NCBI RefSeq assembly: GCF_964194155.1
Contig: NC_135890.1
Location: 97,154,001 to 97,218,000, forward strand
DNA: 64,000 nt
Direction of reading: 5' to 3'
Origin: Cetorhinus maximus
Taxonomy: Eukaryota
Part shown: one piece after another, positions 3,606 to 64,000 of the stretch
Numbering within the stretch: the stretch's first letter is position 1
Layout: every line of letters begins with the position of its first letter
Program-made: the position numbers and the translations under genes
Notes under the pieces: model-generated
Seen by the model: only the letters and a program-made list of their open reading frames with translations
What the model was told of the DNA's origin: nothing
Database searches by the model: none

Positions 3606-3799
3606 GCAACTGACTGAACTTTTCTGGATCCAACTTTTTAGTCGTCTTTCAGGTTTATTTTCTTTAGTGAGTGAAATCCTGCCGTGGATGGTTTTTCGTC
3701 AGTGCCAAGCCCTCTAAACTCATTAATTTACTTGCATTGGGTTCCGCAAATAATTCTGTATCTATCCTGTAATAGAGGCCTCACCCAAGTCAAGTCAAG

Positions 3800-5124: not shown

Positions 5125-6062
5125 TTAATTCATTTATGGGATGTGGGCATCGCTGGTTAGGTAGCACTTATTGCCCATCCCTAATTGCCCTTGAGAAGGT
5201 GATGAGCTTGAACTGCTGTAGTCCGTGTGGTGTGGGTACATATGTTAGGGAGGGAGATCCAGGATTTTGACCCAGCGACAGTGAAGGAACGGTGAGGTAT
5301 TTCCAAGTCAGGATGGTGATTGGCTTGGAGGGGAACTTCCAGTTGGTGGTGTTCCCATGTGTCTGCTGCTCTTGTCCTTCTAGGTGGTAGTAGTCATAGA
5401 TTTGGAAAGTGCTGCCTAAGAAGCCTTGGTGAGTTCCAACAGTGCATCTTGTAGATGGCACTCGCTGCTGCCACTGTGCATTGGTGATGGAAGGAGTGAA
5501 TGTTTGTGCATGGGGTGCCAATCAAGCAGGTTGCTATGTCCTGAATGGTGTCAAGCTTCTTGTGTTGTCAGGCAAGTGGAGAGTGTTCCATCACTCTCCT
5601 GACTTGTGCCCTGTAGATGGTGGACAGGCTTTGGGGAGCGGGGAGGTTGAGTTACTCGCCGCAGGATTCCTAGCCTCTGACCTGCTCTTGTAGCTGCCCA
5701 GTTCAGTTTCTGGTCAATGGTAACCCCCAGGATGTTGATATTGAAGGCTTAAGCGATGGTAATGCCATTGAATGTCATGGGGCAATGGTTAGATTCTCTC
5801 TTGTTGGGGATGGTCATTGTCTGGCACTTGTGTGATGCAAATGTTACTTGCCACTTGGCAGCCCAAGCCTGGATATTGTCCAGGTCTTGCTGAATTTGGA
5901 CATGGGCTGCTTCAGTACTTGAGGATTTTAGAATGGTGCTGACTATTGTGCAATCATTGGTGAACATCCCCATTTCTGACTTTATGATGGAAGGAACGTC
6001 ATTGATGAGGCAGCTGAAGATGGTTGGGTCTGAGACACTACCCTGAGGAATCCCTACAGATG
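5125..6062 (-). mobile_element. 5'-truncated copy of the same LINE family, frameshifted
   Basis: ORF 5749-6069 GIPQGSV..PTIFSCLIND...FTNDCT (RT core); 3' end matches 4300-4610. Confidence 0.85.
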
Positions 6063-6659
6063 TAACCAATTTTTAAAATAATTTTGTACTTTGCCCCTGC
6101 TATGATAAGGACGTTACTATATTATCTCAATTTGGAATAAATCTACCACATCTTTTTTAACTTGTATTTAATAGCTTATTCTAAACTGTTAATATGCCTG
6201 TATTTGTGTTTGTGCCTTGGGCAGACTATAAAGAAAACTGTGAGCCCATTGATGCTGTATTTGTCTGGTGGATTACCTTGGCCTTTGGGCTGACGGTCAA
6301 AAAAAAATAGTTTTTATTAAAAAAATAGTTAGGTCCCTCGTGTTTGATATGCTTCTGTGTCCTTATGGTAGAACTGACTTCACAACATTATAAAGACTTA
6401 CTTTATTTATAAACTGTACAAGAATAATGTGCACTTAAAAGTTTTTCCATTATTAGCACTTATATAAGTGGAAGATCCTGTTTGGAAGGAAGGCAGAACG
6501 GATCCTGCTCTTAAATTTAAATGTATGTATATATCACCACCGCCCCCCACCCCCATGTAATTATGCACTCTTGCTTTGTCTTGGGAAATATCCTTCATTC
6601 CTTTCTCCTGACCTAAATGGCAGATTTAACGTGTGAATCATACAATATTATTTTTCCTG

Positions 6660-8225
6660 TTCTTTCATGGGATGTGGGCATTGCTGGCAAGGCCACTATT
6701 TTGTTGCCCATCCCTAATTGCCCTTAAGGAGGTGGTGGTGAGCTGCTACCTTGAACTGGTGCAGGTACACCCATTGTAACGAGGTGTCAGCTGTGGCTCA
6801 GTTCATAGCACCCTCGCCTTTGAATCAGAAGGTTGTGGGTTCATGTCCCACCCCTGGAAACCAAGAACTGTGAATGTACTCAAAAGAGTTACATGTGATC
6901 TGTTGATAACTCGAAAGAGTTACACCCATTGTGCTGCTAGGAAGGGAGCTGCAGGATTTTGATCCAGTGACAGTGAAGGAATGGCAATATATTTCCAAGT
7001 CAGGTTGGCGAGTGGCTTGGATGGGAACTTCCAGGTGGTGGTGTTCCCACACATCTGCTGCCTTTGTCCTTCTAGGTGGTAGAGGTCATAGGATTGGAAG
7101 GTCTTGTTGAAAGAGCCTTGGTGTGTTGCTGCAGCGCATCTTGTAGATGATACACACTGCTGCCACTGTGTGCCGGTCAGGGAGGGGGTGAATGTTGAAG
7201 GTGGATGGGGTGCCAATCAAGTGGGCTGCTTTGTCCTGGATGGTTTTGAGCTTCTTGATTGTTGTTGGAGCTGCACTCACCCAGGCAAGTGAAGAGTATT
7301 CCATCACACTACTGACTTGTGCCTTGTAAATCGTGGACAGGCTCTGGGGAATCAGGAGGTGAGTTTCTTGTAGCAGAATTCCCAGCCTCTGACCTGCTCT
7401 TGTAGCCACAGTATTTATATGGCTAGCCCAGTTCAGCTCCTGGTCAATGATAGCCCCCAGGATGTTGATAGTGGGGGATTCAATGATGGTAATGCCATTG
7501 ACTGTCAAGGGGAGATGGTTGTATTCTCTCTTGTTGGGGATGGTCATTGACTGGCATTTGTGTGCCATGAATGTTACTTGCCATTTATCAGCCCAAACCT
7601 GAATGTTGTCCAGGTCTTGCTGCAAATGGGCACAGACTGCTTCAGTTTCTGAGGAATCATGGATGGTGCTGAACATTGTGCAATCATCAGTGAACACCCC
7701 CACTTCTGACCTTATGATGGAGGGTAGGTCATTGATGAAGCAGCTGAAGACCCTACCCTGAGGAACTCTTGCAGTGATGTCTGGGGCTAAGATGGTTGAC
7801 CTCCTACAACCCAACCATCTTCCTTTGTGCTGGATATGACTTCAACCAGCGAGAGAGTTTTCCCCCAATTCCCATTGACTTCAGTTTTGCTAGGGTTCTT
7901 TGATGCTACGCTTGGTCAGATGCTGCCTTGATGTCAAGGGCAGTCACTCTTACCTCACCTCTGGAGTTCAGCTCTTTAGTCCATGTTTGGATCAAGGGGT
8001 GAGAAGCTGAGTGACCCTGGCAGAACCCAAATTAAGCATCAGTGAGCAGGTTATTGCTGTGTAGTATCTGCTTGGTAGTACTGCTGATGACCCTTTCCAT
8101 CACTTTGCTGATAATTGAGAGTAGCCTGATCGGGCAGTGATTGGCGAGGTTGGATTTCTCCTGCTTTTTATGGACAGGACATACCTGGGTATTTTCCACA
8201 TTGCCAGGTACATGTCACTGTTGCA
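6660..8225 (-). mobile_element. Third copy of the same LINE family, interrupted by a short insertion
   Basis: ORF 7086-7814 VPQG..FINDLP..FTDDCT..YKAQVSSVMEYS. Confidence 0.85.
6778..6920 (+). mobile_element. 143-bp tRNA-head (SINE-like) insertion with 12-bp TSD
   Basis: A-box-like gtggctcagttcatag and B-box-like ggttcatgtccc; TACACCCATTGT at 6766-6777 and 6921-6932. Confidence 0.7.
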
Positions 8226-9107
8226 AATGGCTCGGGCTGCCCCCCACCCCCCGCAGGATGTTGATGGTGGGAGATTCAGAAATGCTAATACCATTGAGTA
8301 TACACACAAAAGGAGGCCATTTAGCCTAGTGAGCACCAGCTCCTTTGAAGAACAATCCAGTTAGTTCTGCTCCCCTGTTCTTTCCCAATATCCCTGCATT
8401 TTTATCCAAGTATTTATCAGCATTTCTTTTGAAAGCTACTGTTAAATTTAGGGCAGTGAATTCTAAATCCTAACCATTTGTTGCATTGCAAAAGAGATTT
8501 TCATTTTATTTTTGCCTTTTCATGACTTTAATAATGATGTAGGAAAAGGTTTTGAGTATTTTCTGCTGAATTGTAAGGCTTGTAAAATTCCTGTTCCTGC
8601 GCTCTGAGTGGGTTAGGTTGTTTCTAGTCGACACGTATTTTGGTTTTTGGTATTTTCCAGCAGTAGGAACGTTTTGTGTCAGATGTTTCTGATCCTGAAT
8701 GACATAATTAACTATTTTTGCTACCTCTGATATTGAACAACTTCCAAAGCTTTGAAGCTTATTCCAAGAGCTCAATATGGGCATTTTGCCCAACAGTGGT
8801 TCACCTCCCAGATTCTGACAAGTGCAGTATGCTTGAAACGTTTACTGATGTGCACATAAGAGAGAGTCTTGTTGCTCAGAGAAATAAAGTTTCAAGGATT
8901 TACTGGCTGAATAATGTACTTCACCCAACTTGGGTATTTGGAGAGAGGGCATTATATGTTTTGCATGATCTTGGGGCCACTTCCATATTTTTCAAAATTT
9001 GCTATCTTAATCTGTCGAGCTCTGAAGTTGACTGATACTTTGTGAGATGCTGGTACAAGCATCTGGACGACTAACCAACATGAAAGTGGAATTATCAACT
9101 CATGAGC

Positions 9108-11853: not shown

Positions 11854-13887
11854 ATAGAAATAAGAGTTAAGACATTTCTCCACTCATCTTTTCCAGGCAT
11901 AGATATATTAGCCTGTGTTACTGTGGACCTGTCATCTGACCGTAGTGGTGAAAATGAACATGTACAGCACTTTGTTGCTCCATTGCTTAAGCAGGTGTTA
12001 GTGTGGTGTGACATCCCTTGTCTTAGTGACTGTAGACAGCTTGTCCATGTAGGGAAATGGCATAGCCTAGCAGCAGGGTGCATCTTTGGGTCTGGAATCC
12101 AGGCAGTCATCCAATGACATTTGTGTGTCCTGGTGAATATCTTTGTCACCAGAGACATTGCCGGAAGCATTTGGCTAGTTGGGTCCCTCTGTGTGTCATT
12201 GCAAGTAATTGCAAACTATGTGCTATCTTGGTAATTGACTGACAGAAAAGTGTACAAAAATAGCAGCAGTTTATTGCGTCAATGTAGATAATACGGCATT
12301 TGTGAAGCTGAGATCAAATCAATGAGGAAAAATTGATCAAAAAACCACAAGGGGATTGTATTAAAGTGTTGGGGGATGGGAGGTTGTTAAAAGTATCCTT
12401 GACAAATTAAATTGTGGAGGGATTAAAGATCTCTACAAAAGTAAATCTGAATAACACAGTAGCAACTTTCAGCTTTTGTATGTTTAATTAGATAGATTAA
12501 GGTTTGCCTTGATGAAAGAAGCAGATTTGGAATCTCATTGTTGGGATTCACAGAATACCTGACCTGTTGTTTCAAATAGATCTGATACCTCAGCAGGGAT
12601 TTATTTGTAGCACAGTGAGTGCTAAACAAAATGTCAGGGTACTAAAATACAAAAATACTGCAACAGTGATGCAGAAGACTACATTTTCTTGTACAGTATT
12701 CAAATCTGAAGATGATATGGTGGTGGCAGATCAGCACCGTGTGGAATTGAAAGTTTCAATTTGGAAACATTACTTTTGGAGAATTATTGAGTGAGCAAAG
12801 ACTATCCCCGTGTTCTTTTGAATATTTCCTCAGACATAGAAACAATTTCTTTGTTGGAATGGGTTGGCTGCAATTTATTACCACCAAAAAGATTGGAATA
12901 CAATATTTCGTTGTAAATTAACTGCACTTTTCTTGGATTGATGAGGAATGTGGGTTTCCATTTCCCCATTTTCCTCAGAATTTTGTTCAAATCGATTGTT
13001 GTGCCTTTTATTCATTTGCAGCCACCACCCCCTGCCCCCGCTTTTTCAACTAAAGATCCTGGGACAATTTCTGTGCATTTAATTAGAGCCTTGGTCACAA
13101 GTTATGTGCTAGTGCAGTGTGTCACAATTTGTCACAGACTACTCTCACAGAGCAGTAGTTTGCAAGTTCATGTTTTCCATTCATAATCTATTTCAAGGAC
13201 AGTAAGCTCAGGAAGGGAAAATTAGTGGTTGGAACCTCATAGTTGCCTCAATCATTCAAAGCTGGAGAAACCAGTAAAACCGGTTGTATCCAAGAATTAT
13301 GGCCTTCATCTCTCAAAGTTGTGTTCAGCAGCACTGTTGTTGATGGTGTAAGAACTGCACATCTGTACTTGATGCCCCCACTCCCCCCCTCATCCAGGTT
13401 TTTCAGACTTGGCTGGCTGGATGAGCCTTCATGTAATTTGAAGATGTGGACAGACAACGATCACTTTACAGAGGAGCTGCTCCAGATTGTTTCCCCCATG
13501 TCGCTAATGTTGCCTTATTGGATGCAACTCCTCCTTGAGTGCTTCCATGCCTTTTAAAATGCTTTTACAATTCTTGTATGGCATAACCTACAACTAGCAA
13601 ACATTCTGTTTTCAGATCTTTCCCCTAGGTTCAATTGTGCACTTTAATGATACCCAAATGATAAAATTTCCCCCTTCAGCACAATACTTGAAGTCAATTT
13701 TTATTTTTGTTGGATGCATTTGATTTGTTTGTTCGCTTGCTACTGGACTGCTCTGTACTGTTCCCTTCTCTATTCTCCTTGCAGACATTCGCTGCTCCTC
13801 TCTCCCCCAGACTCTCAGCTGATGCACCACAATGCATCCTTAGTCAGCAACAGCCAGCAGCAGGAACAATAAAGTATGAGCAATGGG

Positions 13888-14148
13888 ACAAAAACAGAAA
13901 ATGCTGGAAAAACTCGGCAGGTTTGGCAGCATCTGTGGAGAGAGAAACAGGGTTAACGTTTCAAGTCCGTATGACCCTTCTTCAGAGCTCTGAAGAAGGG
14001 TCATACGGACCCGAAGAAGGGTCATACGGACCCGAAACGTTAACTCTGCTTCTCGCTCCACAGATGCTGCCAAACCTGCTGAGTTTTTCCAGCATTTTCT
14101 GTTTTTGTTCCAGATTTTCCAGCATCTGCAGTATTTTGCTTTTATCTT
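13888..14148. mobile_element. Penelope-like palindromic (inverted pLTR) insertion with hammerhead-like cores
   Basis: ~100-bp arms centred on GAGCTC (13985-13990); CTGAAGA...GAAAC on both strands; 15-bp TSD AGTATGAGC(A/T)ATGGG at 13873-13887 and 14149-14163. Confidence 0.75.
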
Positions 14149-22873: not shown

Positions 22874-23020
<147 letters not shown>

Positions 23021-25738: not shown

Positions 25739-25891
<153 letters not shown>

Positions 25892-27021
25892 TAGTAAAGT
25901 TAACTTCAGAATAAGCTACGCCTTCAGGCTGACACAATCCGATTAGAACCCTCATCTCCATTTCAATTATGTATATTTTTAAAGCCAGTTTCACCCCACA
26001 ATTATCAAATCAATGGTTAGAATGAAGTTCTCTCATTAGATGGCTAGTGACATTTTATTCCCAGTGCAATGTAATTTTGAATAGAACTTTAACTACCCTC
26101 AACTTCAGATATACTTTTAAAAGACTTGGACAGATCAAATTTGTTTGAAATTCCCTAATAGTATTTTTGACCCCTTCCCTGCCTTGATAGATAGAAATCA
26201 TTGGCACACAGTAGTTCCAATACTGTTGCACTCAATGTTGCCATTTAAACGTACAAAGTGAAAACCACTCAGTAGTAAAGAGGGTAGCTCTTAATTTCTT
26301 GGCATTAGTCCCCATTGTCTTGGCTCAGGGACTTTACTCTGTAGGATTGACCTGCTGCCATAATCTTCTGGACAGTATTCAAATCCAATTGAATATTAAC
26401 ATTTTTAATATTTTGACATTTTTGTTGCATGTATAGTACTGAGATTTGTGTAAGTGCCACTTTTAGAAGGGAGAAGGGGAATGAAAGTTTGGTTTTCTTT
26501 TCAATTACTAACTCTACAACTGAAAAACTTAAAAATTGCTTTCTTAAGCTGTCCTTATAGTATCGCCAGCGACTAATGCATAGGTCTTGCCTAGCCAGTG
26601 GCAACACCAAAATGAAACTGTTGGATTTAGCAACTGGAGAAACCTTTTAATTTTTTGAACAGAGGAGTTTTCCCATTTGCAGCCCTTTTGTTTTATTAAT
26701 TTTGCCAAAGGAAATACTAATTTATGATCCCACTGATTCCTTGCTGATGGATAATACAAATTTTGTTCCTGGTTTTTGATATGGTGGTGTGTTATGTTAT
26801 AACTGTGTGGATTGGGTACAGGTTTGAACCTTCACTTGATTTTGATCTGAGTTTGTTTGCTTTCTTAGTGGACGCCAGTTGAGTGTGAAATGAATGTCCC
26901 TGTCTTTATGCAATATTATACACACAGATTTGTTCAATGTTTTCTATTAAGAGTATAACAGATCTTAAGTAGGTGAAGCCAATAGCATTTTCTTCCTTTA
27001 CAGTAACAGACTGTACATAAT

Positions 27022-27503
27022 GGGCTGGAGTTGCAGTGGGAACCATAGCGGCCGGGCTGACTTAATCATGGGACAAGCCCTGCAGCAGTGNNNNNNNNNN
27101 NNNNNNNNNNNNNNNNNNNNNNNNNNNNNNNNNNNNNNNNNNNNNNNNNNNNNNNNNNNNNNNNNNNNNNNNNNNNNNNNNNNNNNNNNNNNNNNNNNNN
27201 NNNNNNNNNNNNNNNNNNNNNNNNNNNNGATTAAGTCATAGGATGGAAGGGACTGACATGGAATTCCCTGCAGGATGTCAGTTAGGCTCATTGATGAGCC
27301 TCCCATAACTTACTGGCGGCTCAGGGATTAAGTGGAAGTCGTATGGGTCCCTGCGCCCCGGAAGGTCCCACAGCAAAACCTGTGGGATTTGCTAGCAGCC
27401 TTCTGCAGTTGTCAGTGTCGGTGGGGAGTTCTATCAGGCACTCTGTGCCCGTTCAAGGGACCTGGCATGGAGCAGGGGTGTGGCTGCTGAAAGCCCCAGC
27501 CCC
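27022..27503. mobile_element. MITE-like element in intron 7, spanning an assembly gap
   Basis: Ends GGGCTGG / CCAGCCC; same insertion point as the MITE in the retrocopy. Confidence 0.5.
27091..27228. other. Assembly gap (138 N)
   Basis: Run of N. Confidence 0.99.
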
Positions 27504-27908
27504 CTTAAGGCAACATAAAGCTGCAACATTTATAACATTGTTACCATTTATTCCTGGGATTGTTGGCCTTTCTGTGCTTTCCTGCTCACTGGTGACAGAT
27601 CATTCAGTCTACACAGAACTCTACAAGCTGGAAGACTAACGTCTCCATGTCCCCGGGTAAAATCCAAATCTGAGACTGTGTTTTAAGTTTAACCGTAGCT
27701 GTCCAACATTTGCCATACAAAATCAGGCAGACTAAAGGAGAGGCAGAGACAAGTCCATCTGTTTGAGCTTTTAATTGTCGTGCATATTCGCCTTCCTAGC
27801 CTTTTAAATAGTACCTTTACACAATTCTAACTACTAAGTAATTTTATGGTCACATGATGCCTAGCAGTATCAGTCCTTCTGCTCTGAATTCTAAACAGTT
27901 GATACACT

Positions 27909-28665
27909 AGAAATGTGAAGTGATTCATTTTGGTAAGAAGAACATGAGAGACGATATAAAATTCAGGGTCCAACTCTGAAGGGGGTTCAGGAGCAGAAGA
28001 TCCTGGGTGTATATGTGCATAAATCATTGAAGGTGGTAGGGCAGATTGAGAGAGTGGCTAATAAAGCATACAGTATCTCGGGGTTTATTAATAGGACGCT
28101 AGACTACAAGAGCAAGGAGGTTATGTTGAACTTGTATAAGGCACTAGTTCAGCCTCAGCTGGAGCATTGGGTTCAGTTCCAGGCACTGCACTTTAGGAAA
28201 GATGTGAAGGCACTGGTGGGAGCACAGAAAAAAATCATGAGAATGGTTCCAGGGAGCAGGAACTTCGGTTATGAAGATAGATTGGAGAAGTTAGGACTCT
28301 CTTCCTGGGATGAGAGAAGATTTGTTAGAGGTATTCCAAATCATGGACAGAGTAGATGGGGAGAAACTGTTCCCAGTTGTGAAAGGATTGCAAATGAGAG
28401 GGCATGGATTTAAGGTAATTTGCCAAAAGAAGCAAAAGCAACATGAGGAAAAACTTTTTCATGGAGCATGCCTGAGTGTGGTGGAGGCAGGATCAATTGA
28501 GGCATTCAAAAGGAAATTAGACTGTTATCTGAAAAGGAAGAATGTGGAGGGTTATGGGGCGAAGGTGGGGGGAATGGCACTAGGTGAATTGCTCGTTCGG
28601 AGAGCTGGTGCAGACGCGATGGGCCGAATAAGCTCCTCCTGTGGTGTAACAGTTCTATGATTCTG
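27909..28665 (+). mobile_element. 5'-truncated CR1 LINE in intron 7, sense to the gene
   Basis: ORFs 28015-28413 (YKSKEVMLNLYKALVQPQLE) and 28310-28660; TTCTATGATTCT tail. Confidence 0.88.
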
Positions 28666-30561: not shown

Positions 30562-31481
30562 TGATCAACAAAGAGCAGAAAATTGTCTCAATACTGTTGA
30601 CCTCTTTAATGGCTTGGAGGAGTGAGAGAAAGGGATTGTTCAGCTTGGAGCATGGGAGACTTTTCATTTCTCTGCTGAAGCAGTACTTTCTTTCCTGCGT
30701 AATACTTGCCCCAGTCATCTTGTGGTAATTGACCTCCGATTAGCAGTGTACATGAGAATTGTGTGACAGCCTCTGGAGAATTTAATTTAAATGACATCAC
30801 TCAAATGAGTAAAATCAATGACGAGATCTATTTTAAATGTTTATCAAACTTAATTATCTGTTGTATGATTGAGCTTTTATATTAGAAACAGCTTTAGTTG
30901 GCTTTTATCTACACACTGCAGTGTGCTCGCATATATAGTTTGTATGGATTAATTTATACATATTTGCATGCAAATTGTAGCGCATTGCCAAATTAGTTGG
31001 TGGTGACTAAGAACTTGAATTTTTTTTAAAAGCTATTCTTGCTTCTGTTAGTTAGGCAAGATTTTAGCTTGTGACCCACGTTGAAACCTTTGGAAGAGTT
31101 TAAATGAGTTCTATATATTTGTCCTTCATGTCTTCTTCAGCTTGTAGGATGTGTGCAAGATTTATGTGTGCTGTCAGACATTCAAAATTGGCTGCTAAAA
31201 CAACCTGATTGTTTGCCTCATGGGCTAAAAATGGACTCCTCCGGGAGTACAATTTCTCTACACCAGTGTGGTGTAAAGAATCTCTTGACCTAGACAGTAA
31301 GATTCTCACAGCATTCTCTGATCTCATGAGGCACTTACAAAGTCTGTGTATGTATTAAATTAAATTGAGCTTCATGTGCTGTACCTCAATTTTTTAAAAG
31401 CTATTTCCAGACAAAGACTTTGTGCATGTAGCAACAAACCTAAATTCTGATCTGATATTCTTGCACAATCAGCAGTACCCT

Positions 31482-31535
31482 AAGATGAAAGCAAAATACT
31501 GCGGATGCTGGAAGTCTGAAACAAAAACAGAAAAA
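31482..31535. mobile_element. 54-bp terminal fragment of the Penelope-like family
   Basis: Resembles the reverse complement of 14095-14148; TSD CAGTACCCT at 31473-31481 and 31536-31544. Confidence 0.75.
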
Positions 31536-41288: not shown

Positions 41289-44200
41289 AAAGAACAAAGA
41301 AAAGTACAGCACAGGAACAGGCCCTTCGGCCCTCCAAGCCTGCACTGATCATATTGCCCATCAACTAAAACATTTTGCACTTCCGGGGTCTGTATCCCTC
41401 TATTCCCATCCTATTCACGTATTTGTCAAGCTGCCTCTTAAACACCACTATCGTACCTGCTTCCACCGCCTCCTCTGGCAGCGAATTCCAGACACTTACT
41501 ACCCTCTGCGTAAAAAACTTGCCCCGCACATTTCCTCTATAGTTTTCTCCTCTCATCTTAAATATATGTCCCCTAGTAATTGACTCTTCCACCCTGGGAA
41601 AAAGCTTCTGACTATCTACTCTGTCCATGCCACTCATAATTTTGTAAACTTCTATCAATTCGCCCTTCAATCTCTGTCGCTCTAGTGAGAACAATCTGAG
41701 TTTCTCCAACCTCTCCTCATAGCTAATAACCTCCAGACCAGGCAGCATCCTGGTAAACCTCCTCTGCACCCTCTCCAACGCCTCCATATCCTTCTGGTAA
41801 TGTGGCGACCAGAATTGCACGCAATATTCCAAGTGTGGCCTAACCAAGGTTCTATACAGCTGCAGCATGATTTCCCAGCTTTTATACTCAATACCCCTGC
41901 CAATGAAGGCAAGCATGCCATATGTCTTCCTGACTACCTTATCCACCTGTGTTGCCACTTTCAGTGACCTGTGGACCTGTACACCCAGATCCCTCTGCCC
42001 TTCAATGCACTTAAGGGTTCTGCCATTTACTGTATAATTCCTGCCTGTATTAGACCTTCCAAAATGCATTACCTTGCATTTGTCCGAATTAAACTCCATC
42101 TGCTATTTCTCCGCCCAAGTCTCCAACCAATCTATATCCCGTTGTATCCTTTGACAATCCTCTTCACTATCTGCAACTCCTCCAACCTTAGTGTCGTCTG
42201 CAAACTTACTAATTAGCCCAGTTACATTTTCCTCCAAATCATTTATGTATACTACAAACAGCAAAGGTCCCAGCACTGATCCCTGCGGAACTCCACTAGT
42301 CACAGCTCTCCATTCAGAAAAGCACCCTTCCACTGCTACCCTCTGTCTTCTATGACCAAGCCAATTCTGTATCCATCTTGCCAGCTCACCTCTGATCCCG
42401 TGCAACTTTACCTTCTGTTCCAGTCTGCCTTGAGGGACCTTGTCAAAGGTCTTACTGAAATCCATGTATATAACATCCACTGCCCTTCCATTGTCGATCA
42501 TCTTTGTCACTTCCTCGAAAAATTCGATCAAGTTAGTGAGATACGACCTCCCCTTCACAAAACCATGCTGCCTCTCACTAATACGCCCATTTGCTTCCAA
42601 ATGGTAGTAAACCCTGTCACGAAGAATCTTCTCCAATAATAACCCTACCACTGACGTAAGGCTCACCGGCCTGTAATTTCCTGGATTATCCCTGCTACCC
42701 TTCTTAAACAATCGAACAACATTGGCCATTCTCCAGTCCTCTGGGACCTCACCTGTAGCCAGTGAGGATACAAAGATTTCTGTCAAGGCCCCAGCAATCT
42801 CCTCCCTTGCCTCCCTCAGTACTCTGGGGTAGATCCCATCTAGCCCTGGGGACTTATCCACCTTAATGTTCTTCAAGACGCCTAGCACCTCTTTTTTGAT
42901 CTCAACATGATCCAGGCTATCTATACACTCTTCCCTAGACAAATCGACTGCTAAGTCCTTCTCTTTGGTGAATACTGATGAGAAGTATTCATTTAGTATC
43001 TCTCCCATTTCTTCTGGCTCCACACACAGATTCCCACCTCTGTCCCTGAATGGGCCTACCCTTTCCCTGGCTACCCTCTTGCTTTTTACATATGTATTAA
43101 AGGCCTTGAGATTTTCCTTAATCCTGGTTGCCAGTGACTTTTCATGACCCCTTTTAGCCCTCCTGACTCCTTGCTTAAGTTTCTTCCTACTTTCTTTATA
43201 TTCTCCACGGGCTTCATCTGTTCCCAGCCTTCTAGCCCTTACGAATGCTTCCCTTTTCTTTTTGACTAATCTCACAATATCCTTCATTATCCAAGGTTCC
43301 TGAAACTTGCCATGCTTATCCTTCATCCTAGCAGGAACATGCCGGTCCTGAATTCTTATCAACTGACGTTTGAAAGCCCCCCACATGTCAGTTGTTGATT
43401 TGCCCTCAAACATCCGCCTCCAGTCTAGATTCCTCAGATCCTGCCTAATATTGTTATAATTAGCCTTCCCCCAATTAAGCACCTTAACCCGAGGACTCCT
43501 GTTATCCTTATCCACCAGTACCTTGAAACTTACTGAATTATGGTCACTTTTCCCAAAATGCTCCCCTACTGAAACTTCGACCACCTGGCTGGGTTCATTC
43601 CCTAATACCAGGTCCAGTATTGCCCCTTCCCTAGTTGGACTATCTACGTATTGTCTCAGGAAGCCCTCCTGCATGCACCTTACAAATTCTGCACCATCCA
43701 AACCCCTAGCACTAAGTGATTCCCAGTCAATATAGGGAAAGTTAAAATCACCCACCACAACAACCCTATTGCTTTTACATCTTTCCAAAATCTGCCTACA
43801 TAACTGTTCTTCAATCTCCCGCCGGCAATTAGGAGGCCTATAGTAAACTCCCAACATTGTGACTGCACCCTTCCTATTCCAGAGCTCTACCCATATTGCC
43901 TCGCTGCATGAGCCCACCGAGGTGTCCTCCTGTCGTACAGCTGTGATATTCCCCTTAACCAGCGGTACAACTCCCCCACCTCTTCTACATCCCTCTCTAT
44001 CCTGCCTGAAACATCTAAATCCTGGAATGTTTATCTGCCAATCCTGTCCATCCTTCAACCAAATCTCTGTAATAGCAATAACATCATGGTCCCAAGTACT
44101 AATCCAAGCTCTAAGCTCATCTGCCTTGCCTGTTATACTTCTCGCATTGAAACAAATGCATTTCAGACCCCCAGTCCCACTGTGTTCAGTAATTTCTCAC

Positions 44201-45510: not shown

Positions 45511-47170
45511 TGGTCTGTGTATGGTGAACATGTCACAGCAAGGGTGCTGCAGTTGGCCTCGGTGCCATGAGATTAGCGAAGGGAAATTTGGCTAAAATCC
45601 CCATTCCTGATCTCTAAGCAGTGATTCCTGATTTTTAGATGTTGGGAGAAGGCAACATTGGGCTCAATTCTGAAGCCCACTTGGTAAAATAACAAGCACT
45701 CGCAATCTAGATTCAAATCTTCAAAAGAAAATTTTTAGGGTGAATTACTTGTTGCATTTCAAGTAATTGTTCTTTTAATGGTATTTCATTATGCTACTTT
45801 TCCATGTTAAAGCCTATCAATTATTTTCATACTTTAGAATTATTTGTCGAGCGCAGTAAATGCCTGTTTTAGAAATTATTTTCTCTGTTCATAAAATCTT
45901 CAGTTGCTATTAGAGGGTTGTGGAAGTTGTAACTGTTGCAACCTGGTAGTGTTTAATTGTGATTGAAATATCAAGTTACTGATGAAAAAGCTGACACCAA
46001 AATTAAAGTACATGAAAAATAGTGCAGCTGGTCACTAAAACAATATCTTGTACCAAATGCTGAAAAATGTAATATATTGCTGCATTAGCTTCCTAGAACA
46101 TTAGTTTTGGGACACTGGTCACAGAAATAACTCCTTACTCAGGCACTAAGGTGTAAATTAGGCATTCCATCGAAAGGAGAGAGAACACTTGAGCACAAGT
46201 TTGACATGCCCATCCCTGTGCCTCCCACACCTTGATTATCGACTGCTTAACTTCTGGCTGCTAGTCTCCTGAGGTTGATTCTAAACTTGCTGCCATGGTG
46301 TTAAACTAGTGTTATAGATTGGTTATCCATTATAAAAACCATCCAATTTTAATTTATATTGTTTTTCAGTATTATCCAGTCTAACAGCAGTAAAATTAAA
46401 TCTGCCTGATGTTTCTTAACATCCTGTTGTATATATCTAATACAAATGGTGAAGAAAGAAACTTGAGAGTTACCTCTGTCCAAATTACTTTCTTGTCCTT
46501 GCCCACCTCCTTTTGTCCTTCTATAAGTTACATGTGCGTTTCCGAAGAGAAGGCGTAAATAATAATACTGGGCAAGTTGGACATTTGAGAGGAAGAGATT
46601 TTTGTAACCATGACACCTATCTTAAAGGGCCAAAGCCACTTCACGCCAAAAGATATTCCTCTAGCGCATATACCCTTCAGAGACACACTAATTACCACTG
46701 ATCAATTTCCAGCCACAATGAATAACATTTGGTCAGGGGCACACTTACAATTGATTGACCTTTGACTGCTGCTGACTTGTGCTTTTTCAAAGAATGTTGT
46801 AATAAAACTAGGTTAAAATTAAGCGATCAGATTTATTATACATTGGTATAAAATGCTTCACTTGTTAGAGAATTGTTTACATTGTCATAAAGAATCTACG
46901 GCCTAACTGATATTAAGGCAATAATGTGTGATTTTTTTTTTCTCCTATATCCTGTTTGCTCAGATATTTAGCCCCATTTTGGCCTTTGAAGTACTTAGAC
47001 CTGATTGGAAGCTGCCTTCAAGTAATCAACCATATATGTCTTTTGGGTGCTTCCTTGAAATTTTCAAACAGTGAACATTGTTTAGTATTGCAAAAAATAA
47101 TTTTCCTGAATTTGACCATTTTCATATACCAAGTATGGTTTTCATCTGGTATGTTTTTTTTTATCTTTAG

Positions 47171-47392
<222 letters not shown>

Positions 47393-48099: not shown

Positions 48100-49545
48100 A
48101 GCGAAGCAGCCCTTGTCAAATCACAAATACCATCCTATACGGCTGATGGTGGCAAACTATCCTTCCTACCCTTCTCTGCCTGTCTGTAACTTTAGACATG
48201 ATTGACCACACTATCCTCCACTGACAGCTTTCTACTGTTGCCCAGCTGGATGGGGCTGCACTCACCTGGTTCCATCCTTATTTACCAGTCACAGCCAGAG
48301 AATCACCTTAAATTACTTCTCTTCCCCTCTTCCCCCAATAATTAACATCTCATTGGGGACCCACTTACTTACAATTGATTGACCTTTGACTGCTGCTGAC
48401 TTGTGCTTTTTAAAAAAAAATGTTGTTATAAACCTAGGTTAAAATTCAGTGATCAGGTTTATTATGCATTGGTATAAAACCCTTCACTTGTTAGAGAATT
48501 GTTTATGTTGTCATAAAGAGTCTCTGGTCTAACTGAAATGAAGGCAATAATGCATGATTTATTTTGATATCCTGGCCGCTCAGATATTTTGCCCCATTTT
48601 GGCCTTTGGAACACCATTACCTCTGGTGTTCCCCAAGGTTTTCCCCCCTCATTATTCTTTATCTACCTGTTGCCTCTCAGCAACATCATCTGAAAATGCT
48701 GTCAGTTTTCTATATGTATGCTGATGATACACAGTTAACTTCCACCCTCAACCCCCTTTACTGTCTCTAATTTGTCCAACATCCGGCACTGGATGAGCAA
48801 AATTTTTCTGCAACTAAATATTGGGAAGACTGAAGCCATTATCTTTGATTGATGCCACAAACTCCACTCCCTAGCCACCGTTCCATTCTCCTCCCAGGCA
48901 ACTGTCTGCAGCTGAACCAGACTGTCCACAGCCTTGGTGTTATATGTGACCCTGACTTGGGCTTCCATGCCCGTGCCAATCTTAAGACCATCTGCTTCCA
49001 CCTCCATAACTTCATTAAACTCCACCCCTGCGTCAGCTCATTTGCTACTGAAACTCTTCTTGTCTTTGTTACCTCTAGACTTTACTATTCCAACACATAC
49101 CAAGTTGGCCTCCTATCTTCCGCCATCTCCAATCTTGGGGTCGTGCAAAACTTTTGCTACCCATGTCCTAACTCGCACTGAGTTCCGGTTGCTTGTCACC
49201 CCTGCATTGACCTACCTTGACTCTTGGTTAAAGAATTAAAAGCCTTATCTTTGTTTTCAGATCCCTCTATGACCTCTCCTTCCTATCTTTGTAACTTCCT
49301 CTAGCCCTTCAACCCTCAGATATCTGCAAACCTCCACTTCTGGCCTCAGCATCCCGATTTTAATCACTGCACCCAAGCTCTGGAATTCTTTCCCTAAACC
49401 TCGTCGCATTGCTATTTCTCTTTCTTCCTTTAGGACACTCCTTGAAACCTGACTCTTTGACCAAGCTTTTGGTCATCTGTTCTACTAAATCCTAATGTAA
49501 CTTAGTGTCAAAATTTGTTTGATAACATGCTGTGAAGTGCCTTGT
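48100..49545 (+). mobile_element. Degenerate L2 LINE (RT region to 3' end), interrupted by a 270-bp local duplication
   Basis: TSGVPQG, YADDTQL, LQLNIGKTEAI and VTSRLYYSN remnants. Confidence 0.8.
48340..48610 (+). repeat. Direct copy of intron 14 sequence 46720-46990
   Basis: Long identical runs, e.g. acttacaattgattgacctttgactgctgctgacttgtgcttttt and cagatattt.gccccattttggcctttg. Confidence 0.9.
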
Positions 49546-49959: not shown

Positions 49960-52900
49960 CCTCCTGTGAATACTGAGCATTGGTACTCGGGGAACAGTGA
50001 GCTATTCAGTTGGGATGGGCTCTGCTTGAGCTGGACTGGGACCAGTGTCCTGGCCAATTGTATAAATAGGGCTGAGGGTGGGGCGGGTAGGGTAAGGGTG
50101 AAGGAAGATTTAGAATTCCAAAGAGAGAGGCCGAGGCATCAGAACAGTCTAGCGATGTGGGTAAAGACAAGTGGAGTGGAGTGGGATGGGAAGGGACAGA
50201 GTTTAGCAAAAATTGTACATCAGTAATTGCAGGGAATCAAAGTAAAAAAAAAAAAATGAAATCAGGTGTTCTTTATCTGAATGCATAAAGCAGCTGCAAT
50301 AAGATAGATGAGCTAGCGGCATATATAGAGGCAAATAATTTAGATCTAATCACCATTACAGAGACAAGATGATCAAGGCTGGGAAATAAATATTCCAGGG
50401 TGTACACTATTTTGGAAAAACAGACAGAATGGTAAAGGTGAAGGGGTAGCCCTGGTGGTAAAGGATGACATAAGCACGTGAGTGAGAAAGGGTCTGGCCT
50501 CAGAAGATCATTTGTAGAATCAGTATGGGTGGAAATTCGGAATAGCAAAAGTCAGAAAACATTGGTGGGCGTAGTTTATAGAGATGTAATAATTGTGGGG
50601 GACTTTAAGCTGCATATAGACTGGGACAATCAATTTGGCAAGAGTGGTCTAGAAGATGAGTTTATAGAATGTTTTCATGACAGTTTCTTGGAGAAACACA
50701 TTGTGGAACCATCAATGGATAAAGCTATCTTACATCTGGTATTGTTTAATGAAGCAGTGTTAATTAGTAATGTCATATTAAAAGTTCCACTGGGAAATAA
50801 TGATCATAATACCATTGAATTCCATGCTAGGTTTGAAAATGACATACTGCAATCATGAACAAGAATCTTAAACTTAAAGCCAATTACATAGGTATATGGG
50901 GAGAAGTGGCTAAGGTTAATTGGGTAAATAGAGTAAAAGCTATGTAGGTAAATGAACAGTGGGAAGCATTTAAAGAAACAATTCAAATTGTTCAACAAAA
51001 ATGAATTCCATTGAAAAGCAAAAACTGAGCAAAGAAGTTCCATTTGTGGCTCACTCAGGAAGTTAAGGATAGTATTTGATTAAAAGAAGAGGCTTATAAT
51101 GTTGTAAAAAATAGTAGCAAGTCTGGGGATTGGGAGTGTTTTAGAAACCAACAGATGGCCACCAAAAAGTTGATAAAAAGGGAAAAAATTAGAATGAGAG
51201 TAAACTAGCCAGAAATATAAAAACAGATTAAGAGCTTATATAATTATATTAAAAAGAGAGTAGCTAAAGTAAATGTTGGTCCCTTAGAAGCAAAGACTGG
51301 AGAAATTATCATGGGGAATGAGGAAATGGCAGAGCCATTGAACAAATATTTTGTGTCTGTCTTCACAGTAGAAGACACAAGTTTCATACCAGAAATAGAC
51401 TAACCTAGGGGCTAAAAAGAGTGAGGAAATTAAGAAAATTAATATCAGCAGAGAACAAGTATTGGGGAAACTTAAGGGATGAGCATCAACAAATCCCTGG
51501 GAGCTGATGGCCTATACCCTAGCTTCTAAAAGAGTTGCAGAGAGAGTGGATATTCTGGCTATGATTTCCCTAAATTCCTTAGGAACAGTCCCATTAGACT
51601 CGAAGATGGCAAGTGTTACACTGCTTTTCAAGAAAAGAGGGAGAGAGAAAACGATGAACTACAGACCAATTAGCCTTACATCAGTTGTTGGGAAAATGTG
51701 GGACTCTATTATTAAGGAAGCCTTAACAATGCACTTAGAAAAGCATAATATGATTAGAACAAGTCAACATGGTTTTGCTAAAGGGGAACCCTGTTTGACA
51801 AATTTATTAGAGCAATTTGAGGATGTAACTAGTAAGGTAGATAAAGGGGAATCAGTCGACATATTATAACTGGATTTCCAAAAGGCATTCAGTGAGGTGC
51901 CACACACAATGTTAATAGGCAAGACAAGGGCTCATGGAGTTGGAGGTTATACTTTAGCATGGATAGAGGATTGTTGAATGGATAGGAAGCAGGGAGTGGG
52001 TATAAATGGGGCCTTTTCAAGTTGACAGGAAGTGAATAGTGGAGTGCTGCAAGGATCAGTGCTGGGGCCTCAACTGTTTACAATCTATATTAATGACTTA
52101 GGTGAAGAGACAGAGTAATGTATCTAGGTTTGTTGACGACACCAAGCTAGGTGGGAAGGCGAGCTGTGGGGAAGACACAGCGAGGCTGCAAAGAGACATA
52201 GGTTAAATGAGTGGACAACAAAATGGCAGATGGTGTATGATGTAGGGAAGTGTATTCACTTTGGTCTTAAGAATAGAAAAGCAGAATTTTTTAAAGGGAA
52301 TGAAACTTGTATGTGTTGATGCTCAAAGGGTCTTGGGTGTGCTTGTGCAAGGAATGCAGAAAGTTAGAAAATTAGGAAGGCAGATGGCATGTTGGCCTTT
52401 ATTGCAAGAGGATTGGAATATAAGAATAAAGAAGTCTTACTACAATTGTACTGGGTTTTGGTGAGATCACATCTAGAATACTGTGTGCAGTTTTGATCTC
52501 CACATTTAAGAAAGGATATACTTGCATTGGAGGCAGTACAGTGAATGATCACTAAATTGGTCCCTGGGATGAGGGAGGTTGTCTTATGATGAGAGGTTAA
52601 GTATTTTGGGCTTATATTCTCCAGAGTTTAGAAGAATGAGAGGTGATCTCATTGAAACCTACAGAATTCTGAAGGGGCTTCTAGGGTCGATGCTGAGAGA
52701 TTGTTTCTGTTGGTTGGGGAGCCTAAAACACGGGAGCACAGTCTCAGGATAAGGGGCCGTCATTTAGGACTGAGATGAGGAGAAATTACTTCAGTCAAAG
52801 GGTTGTGAATCTTTGGCATTCTCTACTGTGGAGGGTTGTAGATGCTCCATCATTGAATGTATTTAAAGCTGGGATAGACAGATTTTTTGGTCTCAAGGAG

Positions 52901-53028
52901 TTAAGGGGTGTGGAGAGCAGGCGGGAAAATGGGAGTTGAAGCCCAAGATCAACCATGATCATATTGAATGGCAAAGCAGGCTCAACAGCCTATATGGTCT
53001 ACTCCTACTCCTATTTCTTGTGTTCTTA
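49960..53028 (+). mobile_element. Long degenerate CR1 LINE (end of ORF1 + ORF2 with many stops)
   Basis: VGDFKLHIDW, LGNNDHN, NYRPISLTSVVGK, SQHGF, FVDDTK; ttcttgtgttctt tail. Confidence 0.9.
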
Positions 53029-55945: not shown

Positions 55946-57459
55946 AATGTGTCATTGGGGAAACATTATTTCACACAACTTTGCGTTGAACTGCATCTGT
56001 CAACCATTGTGTTAATGATCTAAATCTTTCTGAATCCAATTGCGTTGTTGCCTGCTTTTTTAATGAGTCCTGTTTCAAGCCATTAATAAAATAATTCCAG
56101 TGCTCCCTGATGCCTGGCGATTAAAATTCATAACTTCTTTGAAGCTTAAAAATATCTTTAAACTTGTTTTGCTATATTTATAATCAGCCGTATATTATAA
56201 AATAATAACATATGCTACCCAGAACCACAGAGAATCACAGAATTGTTGTACTGCGCAGAAGGAAGCCATTCAGTCTATCGTGTCTACACCAGCTCTCCAA
56301 AGTGAGCTATTCACCTAGTGCCATTCCCCTGCCTTCCCCCTGTAACCCTCCACATTCTTTCTTTACAGATAACAGTCCAATTCCCTTTTGAATGCTTTGA
56401 TTAAACCAGCCTCCACCATACTTTTGGGCATTCCAGACCCCAACCACTCGCTGCATGAAAAGGTTTTTCCTTGGGACATTTTTTGCTGCTTTTGCCAATT
56501 GATTTAAATCTGTGCCCTCTCATTCTCGATCCTTTCATGAACGGCAACAATTTCTCCCTATCTACTTCGTCAGGACCCCTCATGATTTTGAACGCCTCTG
56601 TCAAATCTTTTCTTGACTTTCTTCAAGGAAAACAGTCTCAAGTCCCTCATCCCTGGAACCATTCTTGTGAATTTTTACTGCAATCTTGTCAAGGCCTTCA
56701 CATCTCTCCTAAAATATAGTGCCCAGAACTGTACGCAATACTGCAGCTGAGGCTGAACTAGTGCCTTATACAAGTTCAACATTACCTCCTTGCTCTTGTA
56801 GCCTAGCACCCTAATTAATAAAGCCCAAGATACTGTATGCCTCAACCTGCCGTGCCACCTTAAATAATTTATGCACGTGTACACCCAGGATCCTCTGCTC
56901 CTGAGCCCCTTTCAGAGTTAGACCCTGAATTTTAGATCGTGTCTCACGTTCTTACCAAAATAAATCACTTCACATTTCTAGTGTATCAACTGTTTAGAAT
57001 TCAGAGCAGAAGGGCTGATACTGCTAGGCATCATGTGACCATAAAATTACACAGTAGTTAAGAGTTGTTTAAAGGTACTATTTGAAAGGCTAGGTAAGGT
57101 AAATATGCATGACAATTAAAAGCTCCAAACAGATGGACCCATCTCTGCCTCCTCCTTAGTCTGCCTGATTTTGTATGGCAAATGTTGGACAGCTACGGTT
57201 AAACTCAAAACACAGTCTCAGAGTTTTGGATTTTACCCGTAGATATGAAGACTTTAGTCATCCAGCTTGTAGAGTTCTGTGTAGACTGAATGATCTGTCA
57301 CCAAAATACACTGCCAGTGAGCAGGAAAGCACTGAAAGACCAACAATCCAAGGAATTAATGGTAACAATGTTATAAGTTGCAAGAGATTAAACAATTGTA
57401 AAGGCCACTGAAATAGATTCGAAAGGAACACATTTTAAGGCTTTTCTGTTGCACACATT

Positions 57460-57948
57460 GGCTGGAATTTTGTCAAGCCAACAGGGGTCTCGTCCACTGG
57501 TCAGAGAGCCCTTCAGGCACAATCGGCTGTTGCTGGGCCTTTCCAGCGATTGGGGGCCTTGGCGGCAGAAGACCCACCTGCTGAAAGCTGCCGACTTGTC
57601 ATCGCTACCAGCGCCAGCAGGAGCGGTGGCTCCTGGTGGTACTGCATCCACCCGATGTACAGGATTGTGGAGGCATCCAGGCCACGGGAGTGAAGGCTGG
57701 ATGGGGGTTTTGGGGTTGGCGGGTCAGGGGGGCTGGTGATTAGAGGCAAGCACAGGGGGTGGCTTTCAGTGGCCACCCCCCGAGCCTGATGTCAAGTCTC
57801 TTGGATAACGAGAGCACCACACCCCACACCAGGGTAGGGTTGGAGGGAAGACTCCTGTCACTGGGAGACTGATTCGGGGCTTTTCTCTCAACTAAACCAG
57901 TTTGGCCACCATGACTCCCACCACGAGGCACTGCATAAAATCCAGCTC
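57460..57948. mobile_element. Harbinger-like MITE within the retrocopy
   Basis: TIR GGCTGGAATTTT / AAAATCCAGCTC; TSD ATT at 57457-57459 and 57949-57951. Confidence 0.7.
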
Positions 57949-58751
57949 ATTATGTACAGTCTGTTACTGTAAAGGAAGAAAATGCTATTGGCTTCACCTA
58001 CTTAAAGTCTGTTATACTCTTAATAGAAAACATTGAACAAATCTGTGTGTATAATATTGCATAAAGACAGGGACATTCATTTCACACTCAACTGGCGTCC
58101 ACTAAGAAAGCAAACAAGCTCAGATCAAAATCAAGTGAAGGTTCAAACCTGTACCCAATCCACACAGTTATAACATAACACACCACCATATCAAAAACCA
58201 GGAACAAAATTTGTATTATCCATCAGCAAGGAATCAGTGGGATCATAAATTAGTATTTCCTTTGGCAAAATTAATAAAACAAAAGGGCTGCAAATGGGAA
58301 AACTCCTCTGTTCAAAAAATTAAAAGGTTTCTCAATTTGCCGAATCTGGCACTTTCATTTTGGTGTTGCCACTGGCTGAGCAAGACCTATGCATTAGCAG
58401 TTTGCGATACTATAAGAACAGCTTAAGGAAGCAATTTTAAGTTTTTCAGTTGTAGAGTTAGTAATTGAAAAGAAAACCAAACTTTCATTTTCCTTCTTCC
58501 TTCTCAAAGTGGCACTTACACAAATCTCAGTACTATACATGCAACAAAAATATCAAAATATTAAAGACATGTTAGCTTTCAATTGAATTTGAATACTGTC
58601 CAGAAGATTATGGCAGCAGGTCAATCCAACAGTGTAAAGTCCCTGAGCCAAGACAATGGGGACTAACGCCAAGAAATTAAGAGCTACCCTCTTTACTACT
58701 GAGTGGTTTTCGCTTTGTATGTGTAAATGGCAGCATTGAGTGCAACAGTAC

Positions 58752-59170
58752 CTTTTACCCATTCATGGGATGTGGGCGTCGCTGGCTAGGCCAGCATTTA
58801 TTGCCCATGTGAAATTGGTGGTGAGCTGCCTCCTTGAACCGCTGCAGTCCATGTGGTGTAGATGCATCCACAGTGCTCCAGAAGGGAGCTCCAGGATTTC
58901 GACCCAGAGAAAGTGAAGTCAGGATGGTGAGAGGGGGAACTTCCAAGTAGTAGTGGTCTCATGTGTCTGCTGCCCTTGTCCTTCTAGATGGTAACGGTTG
59001 TGGGTTTCGAAGGTACAGCCTAAGGAGACTTGCAGTGTTCCTGCAGTGCATCTTGTAAATGGTGTACACAGCTGCTACCGTGCATCGGTGGTGGAATGTT
59101 TGTGGATGGGGTGCCAATCAAGCGGGCTGCTTTGCCCTGGATGGTGTCAAGCTTGAGTGTTGTTGGCACT
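58752..59170 (-). mobile_element. Zenon-like LINE 3' fragment inserted into the retrocopy
   Basis: Matches 5130-5560; TSD AGTAC at 58747-58751 and 59171-59175; absent from the parental site near 26220. Confidence 0.85.
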
Positions 59171-59769
59171 AGTACTGGAACTATTGTATGCTGCCATTAA
59201 TTTCTGTCTACCGAGGCAGGGAAGGGGTCAAAATTACTATTAGGGAAGTTCAAATCTGATTTGTCCAAGTCTTGTAAAATTATATCTGAAGTTGAAGGTA
59301 GTTAAAGTTCCATTCGAAATGACATTGCACTGGGAAAAGAATATCGCTAGCTATCTAATGAGAGAATTTCATTCTAACCATTAATTTGATAATTGAGGGG
59401 TGAAAGTGGCTTTAAAAAATATACATTATTGAAATGGAAATGAGGGTTCTAATTCAGATGTCAGTTTGAAGGGGTAGCCTATTCTGAATTTAACTTTATT
59501 ATTCTAAGTTCAATCCAGGTGTAGTCAAGTTTTACAGAGAAAAAGCATGTTATTTTCATCCTGATTCGCAGCATGATGGTCAGGTACTGAGTCGATGTGT
59601 TTGATACAGATTTGCCTGTAAGAATAGATTTCCCTTTTATAATGATGAAGTGTTTCATCTTTTGAACAAAAATTGCACGCACATTTTGAATCATTTCGGA
59701 CAGCAGTCTCAATCCTTGACTTGACCCATCTTCTGCAGAAACACTCCTCCTTGCTTTTTCACTTCCAGC

Positions 59770-61082: not shown

Positions 61083-61319
<237 letters not shown>

Positions 61320-63817: not shown

Positions 63818-64000
63818 AAACAAAGTGCTGGAAATACTTATCAGATCAAGCAACAAACATGAGGGATAGAAACTGTTCTGACGAAAAATTATCAGCCTGA
63901 AATATTAACTGTTTTTCTCTCCACACTGCCGCCTGACCCAGCTGTGTGTTTCCAACATTTTCGGTTTTTGTTTCAGATTTCCAGCATCTGCAATATTTTG
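63818..64000. mobile_element. Older Penelope-like palindromic copy, running off the window edge
   Basis: CTGACGA...GAAA core and the cagatttccagcatctgca end shared with 14020-14140. Confidence 0.65.

Follow-up and report, generated by a model that had tools for sequence, protein, structure and literature searches.

An old fragment of ATP2A2 lying antisense within intron 15 of this gene is an RNA-derived copy of that gene's transcript in partly spliced form, and its 3' end is set by the tail of a CR1 element located in intron 7. It resembles a 5' transduction or a LINE chimera and is unusual in its CR1 tail and in having landed in its own gene; the insertion into the parent gene itself is its strongest oddity. 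The fragment was found in a 64,000-nucleotide stretch of the Cetorhinus maximus genome (NC_135890.1, positions 97,154,001 to 97,218,000 of the forward strand), referred to as the window, and all coordinates below count from its first letter. For this one event, retrocopy formation without L1 is likely. As for the mechanism, we give about even credence to a single old CR1-primed, 5'-transduction-like event that occurred soon after the intronic CR1 arrived and was later overwritten by gene conversion.

The window contains exons 6–18 of a SERCA gene, mapped by tblastn with Carcharodon carcharias ATP2A2, with small differences in several exons. The exon numbering follows the initial annotation and what we take to be the human numbering. 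The exon 8 peptide found its best match among solved structures in SERCA2, and was 100% identical to C. carcharias ATP2A2 and 97–98% identical to the proteins of other sharks and rays; judged from these matches, the host gene is shark ATP2A2. The exon 7 peptide was identical in all 12 of the chondrichthyan-type homologues checked and showed one V/I difference in three bony-vertebrate homologues. The relevant features of the gene are as follows.

22,900–22,982, plus strand: ATP2A2 exon 6 (source), from tblastn with shark ATP2A2 and splice sites read from the sequence
22,968–22,982, plus strand: last 15 nt of exon 6, found in the copy
25,770–25,855, plus strand: ATP2A2 exon 7 (source), from tblastn and splice sites
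25,856–27,897, plus strand: 5' part of intron 7, the stretch present in the retrocopy (pairwise alignment), with a 138-N gap at 27,091–27,228 inside
27,898–28,664, plus strand: 5'-truncated CR1 of intron 7, in the same orientation as the gene, from tblastn with RT-family homologues, alignment of the copies in the window, and the tail motif
47,171–47,391, plus strand: ATP2A2 exon 15, upstream edge of host intron 15 (tblastn)
61,103–61,305, plus strand: ATP2A2 exon 16, downstream edge of host intron 15 (tblastn, sequence reading)

Self-comparison of the window revealed an inverted pair, 25,787–28,664 against 59,605–56,231. Read from 59,630 on the minus strand, the second member consists of 15 nt of exon 6, exon 7, intron 7, and the CR1 up to its tail, and it lies antisense in the same gene, approximately 30 kb downstream of the source. 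Its parts are listed below.

56,221–59,630, minus strand: whole retrocopy, antisense within intron 15 of ATP2A2 (self-comparison, pairwise alignment, junction-bridging contigs)
59,616–59,630, minus strand: end of exon 6 (15 nt) joined directly to exon 7, the 5' truncation point of the copy
59,536–59,615, minus strand: decayed exon 7 copy with eight nonsynonymous changes and one synonymous change, a 7-nt deletion, and a 1-nt insertion
58,752–59,175, minus strand: 424-bp high-copy repeat flanked by a 5-bp direct repeat, a later insertion confined to the copy (families D2, D6, and D10)
57,376–57,939, minus strand: block that does not align with source 27,031–27,530, specific to the copy and also present in organisms B and C
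56,221–56,990, minus strand: CR1 part of the copy, ending in approximately three degenerate octamer units without poly(A)
56,218–56,220, no strand assigned: weak candidate 3-bp target-site duplication (TSD), with its partner at 59,632–59,634 and one extra base

The 15-mer from the end of exon 6 occurs once per strand in the window, with a chance probability of approximately 1e-9 per site, and the 2.8 kb of intron 6 are precisely missing from the copy, as is characteristic of retrocopies. The upstream flank of the copy showed no homology with the rest of exon 6 and intron 5 (p = 0.28) or with the end of intron 6 (p = 0.71). Because exon 6 is joined to exon 7, intron 6 is missing, and the flank is unrelated, the template was an RNA from which intron 6 had been removed and in which intron 7 was retained; the splice junction thus bears out the RNA origin proposed in the initial annotation. 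The copy does not have the make-up of a functional retrogene, considering its approximately 100 nt of exon sequence, the eight nonsynonymous changes, and the frameshifting indels. No other exon-junction copies were found in the window with 13 exon probes. The repeat that interrupts the copy was present at very high depth in sequencing-run contigs. Farther along, source 27,031–27,530 and copy 57,939–57,376 are GC-rich blocks of approximately 0.5 kb that begin at a common point and are mutually unalignable; the block of the copy is bounded by short inverted ends and so resembles a miniature element, and the source has its N gap in this region. One element may have been replaced, or two elements may have been inserted at one site. 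The inverted twins (25,770–28,664 and 59,615–56,231) enclose exons 8–15, and from their sequences they could pair in the pre-mRNA over >2 kb, a possible setting for back-splicing or A-to-I editing.

The intron 7 element is composed of a C-terminal remnant of ORF2, a short 3' UTR, and an octamer tail of approximately 1.6 units. Its assignment to the CR1 type rests on the ORF2 remnant matches and the octamer tail motif: tblastn with PF00078-bearing homologues covered both source and copy (the C-terminus of an RT-family ORF2), and a sister CR1 copy matched RVT_1 with E = 1.5e-5, short of the curated threshold. The strict two-unit octamer motif has three matches in the window, in the source, in the copy, and in a further copy at 9.1 kb; the octamer tail AUUCURUG is described in the available part of PMC5729268 as a feature of amniote CR1s. 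Source and copy share a 51-bp identical run (27,875–27,925) that spans the CR1 5' junction, and similarity to an independent CR1 copy begins only at approximately 27,898–27,909. The two therefore share the 5' junction, as the initial annotation had stated, and, as in a 5' transduction, the host sequence upstream passes directly into the source element at that element's own 5' junction. Its statement that the copy stops at the CR1 tail was likewise upheld, since the 1.37 kb of intron 7 beyond the tail, when locally aligned with the flank of the copy, scored at the level of shuffled sequences (p = 0.67; first 300 bp, p = 0.85).

A 3' end at the tail repeats and 5' truncation, both features of CR1-mediated target-primed reverse transcription, are present in the copy, and we estimate the chance of a random end falling within 10 nt of the tail at approximately 0.5%. 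Poly(A), which marks L1-type processed pseudogenes, is absent at this end, and the octamer units directly abut the flank, consistent with the earlier claim that the CR1 tail, not poly(A), set the 3' end. No TSD of the L1 type (approximately 13–15 bp, from the available part of PMC4245944) was seen at the ends of the copy, only the 3-bp candidate, and age could erode a TSD. The probability of this candidate by chance is 0.096, and the TSD lengths of CR1/L2 elements peak at 3–5 bp in the same portion of that source (PMC4245944). The tail of the copy (approximately three units) is longer than that of the source; slippage is noted for UnaL2 in the accessible text of PMC3747384. In none of the four decayed tails did a hairpin fold beat shuffled sequences (z from −0.76 to +1.40), and the consensus fold was weak (−5.8 kcal/mol). 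The copy retains a CR1 stretch of 18–23 nt that is missing from the intron 7 element, as had been noticed at the outset, and the converse is also true, with stretches of 15 and 27 nt in the source that are missing from the copy. Each twin keeps stretches missing in the other; these are therefore later private deletions.

Long ORF2 remnants of other CR1 subfamilies are located at 41,374–43,074 (minus strand) and 51,260–52,921 (plus strand), and the former aligned over 571 residues to an RT homologue. A protein search with CR1 ORF2 returned 15 homologues at 44–60% identity, which are too distant for a subfamily assignment. A DNA motif scan of metagenomes for more shark CR1 DNA gave 0 matches; a protein-led scan of the metagenomes gave 64 mostly distant loci, with the best segments mostly at 30–61% identity, and a protein-led scan of genome and viral contigs gave no CR1 loci. 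Reverse transcriptases labelled Proteus and Klebsiella on 1.6-kb contigs were 56–60% identical to shark CR1 ORF2; by sequence, these bacterial-labelled proteins are likely vertebrate contamination in the databases.

At least 20 sequencing runs from seven studies contain part of the stretch, and the best four may derive from the assembly's own sample. The contigs of four runs were aligned to the window, with 48–62% of each run covered; the results refer to the contigs listed, and contigs may merge near-identical twins. In organism A, contigs bridged both the splice-junction end (0 differences) and the tail end of the copy, and source-type and copy-type contigs were separate. In organism C, the splice-junction end was bridged in two studies (68 differences in 2,027 positions) and the tail end in one; the CR1 3' half carried the private deletion of the copy, and contigs of both types were present. 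In organism B, the copy-specific middle block was present, and none of the contigs listed bridged a junction. Because contigs of A and C bridge both junctions, the insertion predates the A–C split. An assembly artefact is ruled out by the same bridging and by the coexistence of source-type and copy-type contigs. At 58,230–58,627, organisms B and C had contigs at approximately 1.5–2 times the single-copy depth, which hints at lineage-specific conversion where the twins of A differ and could also reflect contig merging. At 57,014 and its partner 27,874, a twin-distinguishing base appeared to be swapped in organism C and in one contig of organism A, possibly through conversion, polymorphism, or contig mosaicism.

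The identity between source and copy was far from uniform along their length (segment heterogeneity, p = 1e-19). It was 88.6% in exon 7, 88.4% in the 5' block of the intron, and 91.8% in the next block, rose to 98.7% in a core, and was 93.1% before the CR1, 91.0% in the CR1 5' part, 76.5% in the CR1 middle, and 82.2% in the CR1 3' part. Two features define this profile.

26,637–27,030, plus strand: recently homogenised core of the source, partner 58,333–57,940, with 5 mismatches in 394 positions and a 215-bp identical run
28,148–28,179, plus strand: identity step within the CR1, from change-point analysis and trees, partner at approximately 56,744

The initial annotation had described similarity as falling toward the tail. 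Instead, a single step was found at source 28,161 (support 28,148–28,179), approximately 250 bp into the CR1, where divergence rises from 7.7% to 20% (47 mismatches in 613 positions before and 96 in 470 after; dLL 18.8; the largest value among 500 permutations was 8.0); past the step, mismatches were flat or slightly recovering (38, 31, and 27 in successive blocks of 156). CpG decay was rejected as the cause of the step, given that the non-CpG divergence still rose from 9.6% to 18.5%. On the 3' side, source and copy were 76.6% identical, compared with 75.0% and 75.8% to an unrelated copy (the pairwise alignment gives 79.6%), and the three-copy site patterns over the 3' 490 bp (57:50:52, p = 0.78) revealed no significant shared history. 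The informative sites of the 3' half leaned to a sister relationship between source and copy (16:7:10, p = 0.051), a weak lean that may be at the subfamily level. The 3' half contained no unambiguous indel common to source and copy, and at source 28,469, a 5-nt deletion that the two may share is masked by the larger deletion of the source. Among invariant residues (10 homologues, compared by eye), three shared changes occurred at the step or immediately 5' of it and two in the 3' half, where parallel mutation predicts about one by a rough hand estimate. In trees of six and seven rows, all of them taken from the window and with five other copies as references, source and copy were sisters at 99/99 5' of the step and fell into a polytomy 3' of it.

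Conversion must have been at work between the twins, since divergences of 1.3% in the middle and 11.6% at the 5' end are incompatible with one insertion (5/394 mismatches in the core vs. 41/354; p = 2e-9). At 58,016–58,235, the twins differed at 1 of 220 positions, whereas organisms A and B differed at 9 of 220 (p = 0.02); a like test with organism C was not significant (twins 3/298, A–C 8/289; p = 0.14). Read from the sequences, the near-identity of the copy's middle part suggests that the inverted twins later underwent gene conversion; assembly collapse of the core alone (330 bp) has a small probability, with no long core record among the organism A contigs listed. The identity step is likely the end of an older conversion tract. 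The windowed trees proposed in the initial annotation did yield the breakpoint, from 99/99 to a polytomy, but its reading as a template switch was not supported. Nor is the fall in identity a reliable hint of switching: conversion alone makes such steps, and exon 7 is more decayed than this reading allows. The locus also illustrates how conversion between neighbouring twins can mislead tests for template switching that rely on windowed trees.

The exon 7 peptide is invariant among the 12 chondrichthyan-type homologues, so the eight amino-acid changes of the copy occurred on the copy's own branch; they amount to approximately 13% of approximately 60 sites. The divergence assignable to the copy alone was alike in exon 7 (8/60) and in the CR1 3' half (50/465; p = 0.51). 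The eight nonsynonymous changes compare with 2.3 expected at the age of the region before the step (P = 0.003) and 3.5 at the age of the 5' intron block (P = 0.026, a weaker rejection). The synonymous sites, with one change observed and approximately 3.7 expected (P = 0.12), go against a single age. Between A and C, the divergence of CR1-derived sequence was about double that of the unique core (28/556 vs. 15/585; p = 0.03), and when source–copy divergence was scaled to A–C divergence, the 5' block gave approximately 3.7-fold (0.125/0.034) and the 3' half approximately 4.6-fold (0.24/0.052), so that the scaled ages of both ends are compatible with one event. Taken together, conversion, exon 7 decay, the scaled divergence, and a 3' half that is not consensus-like indicate an event approximately as old as the intron 7 CR1.

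In the explanation to which we give even credence, an active CR1 reverse transcriptase would have recognised the tail of the intron 7 CR1, still young at that time, in nascent ATP2A2 pre-mRNA; the CR1 ORF2 would have primed at this tail and copied the pre-mRNA into intron 15 of the same gene, and gene conversion would then have homogenised most of the twin pair. The longer tail of the copy would fit slippage during priming. Against it stands the requirement that ORF2 bind in trans in the nucleus, where intron-containing RNA resides, a step that we propose. It is also possible, albeit doubtful, that a CR1 RNA was itself inserting into intron 15 when the enzyme jumped to the homologous CR1 of the nascent, locally abundant pre-mRNA and went on copying as far as exon 6, with conversion afterward. 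Such an early switch explains the local landing without extra assumptions and fits the unrelated-looking 3' half, the end at the tail, and the candidate TSD; furthermore, the stringent LINEs L2 and RTE make U6 chimeras only by template switching, according to the available text of PMC4476161. However, it requires two RNAs and a switch inside the CR1, and with exon 7 so decayed (P = 0.003), the observed step cannot simply be taken as the place of the switch. A switch exactly at the step, with 7.7% as the true age, accounts for the sharp step and the flip of the trees at 28,161, but it is contradicted by the eight nonsynonymous changes against 2.3 expected (P = 0.003), by the 11.6% divergence of the 5' intron block, and by a copy 3' half that is not consensus-like as origin from an active element predicts; it is largely refuted and seems to us most improbable. 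Because the 3' half of the copy is no younger than that of the source (tip lengths 0.14 and 0.17, with 0.089 for the unrelated copy), only an early switch survives.

A further reading, beyond those of the initial annotation and in our view unlikely, is that an independent antisense CR1 already residing in intron 15 and nicked or broken annealed to the CR1 of the pre-mRNA and primed synthesis to exon 6 by any reverse transcriptase. It predicts a local insertion that ends at a CR1 tail and whose 3' half matches the source in age but is unrelated to it; other antisense CR1 pieces do sit in ATP2A2 introns, and spliced cDNA is known to be captured at breaks (PMC4516963, available part). Nevertheless, no leftover CR1 5' part was found upstream of the copy by sequence reading and tblastn, the weak candidate TSD encloses the whole unit, and a closely related subfamily would be needed at the site. 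There is only a very slight probability that the pair arose by DNA-level inverted duplication or assembly artefact, or that an L1/poly(A)-type retrocopy ended at the tail by coincidence. The long retained intron, the N gap of the source, and the near-identical core would suit duplication or collapse, but intron 6 is precisely lost, poly(A) is missing, and the junctions are bridged in organisms A and C. A DNA-level inverted duplication is itself ruled out by that precise loss together with the 15-nt exon 6 match. A random landing in the same gene is very unlikely in a genome that we take to be multi-gigabase, so priming on the intron 7 tail, the early switch, and priming by a resident CR1 all involve contact with nascent RNA at the locus. 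The source and the active elements were near-identical at that time, and priming on the tail and an early switch would therefore leave almost the same trace. Both mechanisms offered in the initial annotation are viable candidates, and the breakpoint it proposed as their discriminator fails: the tree test cannot separate either of them, or resident priming, from the others.

Several known systems share parts of this structure. CR1-mobilised SINEs and stringent 3'-tail recognition are reportedly treated in Suh 2015. The comparisons that follow rest on the available portions of the papers cited. Exonic 5' transductions by SVA (LINC02916, UQCRC1; PMC12593883) are like the shark copy in their canonically spliced exons, read-through into the next intron, and end at the 3' end of the intronic element, and SVA is a non-autonomous intronic element mobilised in trans. 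However, SVA transductions are L1-dependent and end in poly(A) (PMC12593883), whereas the shark copy has no poly(A) and ends at a CR1 octamer tail inside a longer intron; its donor was a truncated LINE remnant, and it landed in its own gene. Stringent LINEs carry tail-bearing SINEs, and CR1-mobilised SINEs, like the copy, place foreign 5' sequence on a CR1-derived octamer-repeat tail, but their heads are amplifying tRNA or 5S Pol III units, whereas the copy is a one-off Pol II pre-mRNA of approximately 2.2 kb plus 0.77 kb of CR1 (PMC5729268; PMC3747384). The U6–LINE template-switch chimeras of platypus, anole, and turkey, the last with one unresolved U6–CR1 case, also combine a cellular RNA at the 5' side, a stringent LINE at the 3' side, and short TSDs; they join unrelated RNAs (PMC4476161), whereas in the shark the source intron already contains the CR1 junction, and the cellular RNA is a protein-coding pre-mRNA. 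Break repair mediated by reverse-transcription products likewise leaves partial spliced cDNA without poly(A) in the genome, but with arbitrary ends and microhomology, unlike the LINE tail at the 3' end of the copy (PMC4516963). LTR-mediated retrocopies are also chimeric and L1-independent, but no LTR remnants were recognised at the flanks of the shark copy, whose element is of the non-LTR class and confined to the 3' side (PMC5131818). SINEU (PMC4494074) differs from the shark copy as well.

CR1 has been held too tail-specific to copy host RNAs, and this specificity is cited as limiting retrocopies (PMC5470649, available part). A 2026 preprint (10.64898/2026.06.26.734816) counted 14,081 retrocopies in cartilaginous fishes and, in its available part, attributed non-mammalian retrocopies to CR1/Tx1 on correlative grounds alone. 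The literature searched, which covered few subscription journals, yielded no account of a host retrocopy that is both partly spliced and CR1-tailed. The ATP2A2 locus provides sequence-level evidence for one way in which a stringent LINE can copy host RNA, and it supplies a signature for genome-wide searches: a splice junction plus a retained intron that ends at an intronic CR1 tail. The landing in the same gene hints at action on nascent RNA, and a single non-coding event says nothing yet on frequency or new genes. It is improbable, to our minds, that priming by CR1 enzymes on the internal CR1 tails of locus-tethered nascent pre-mRNA (e.g., on the lampbrush loops of oocytes) is routine in CR1-rich shark genomes, and that it pastes partly spliced copies into the same gene, where conversion keeps them as long inverted repeats that can fold the pre-mRNA. 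If so, a class of local, antisense, intron-retaining retrocopies would be missed by standard pipelines, and folding of the pre-mRNA around SERCA2 exons 8–15 would favour back-splicing or A-to-I editing.

Other repeats were also observed in the window. Approximately 250 bp of intron 14 are copied in direct orientation into intron 15 (46,740–46,989 and 48,365–48,608), with 86% identity and a 52-bp run containing two mismatches. The intron 15 end of this duplication apparently lies inside an L2-like element, as read by eye, and the duplication, which has no splice junction, may be DNA- or RNA-templated. At 3,500–8,300, there is a cluster of direct and inverted copies, 78–86% alike, of the repeat that later entered the retrocopy. 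A short palindromic repeat family occurs at 13,884–14,112, 31,480–31,534, and 63,896–64,000; the palindrome at 13.9–14.1 kb has 100-nt arms that are 93% complementary and a 29-nt spacer.
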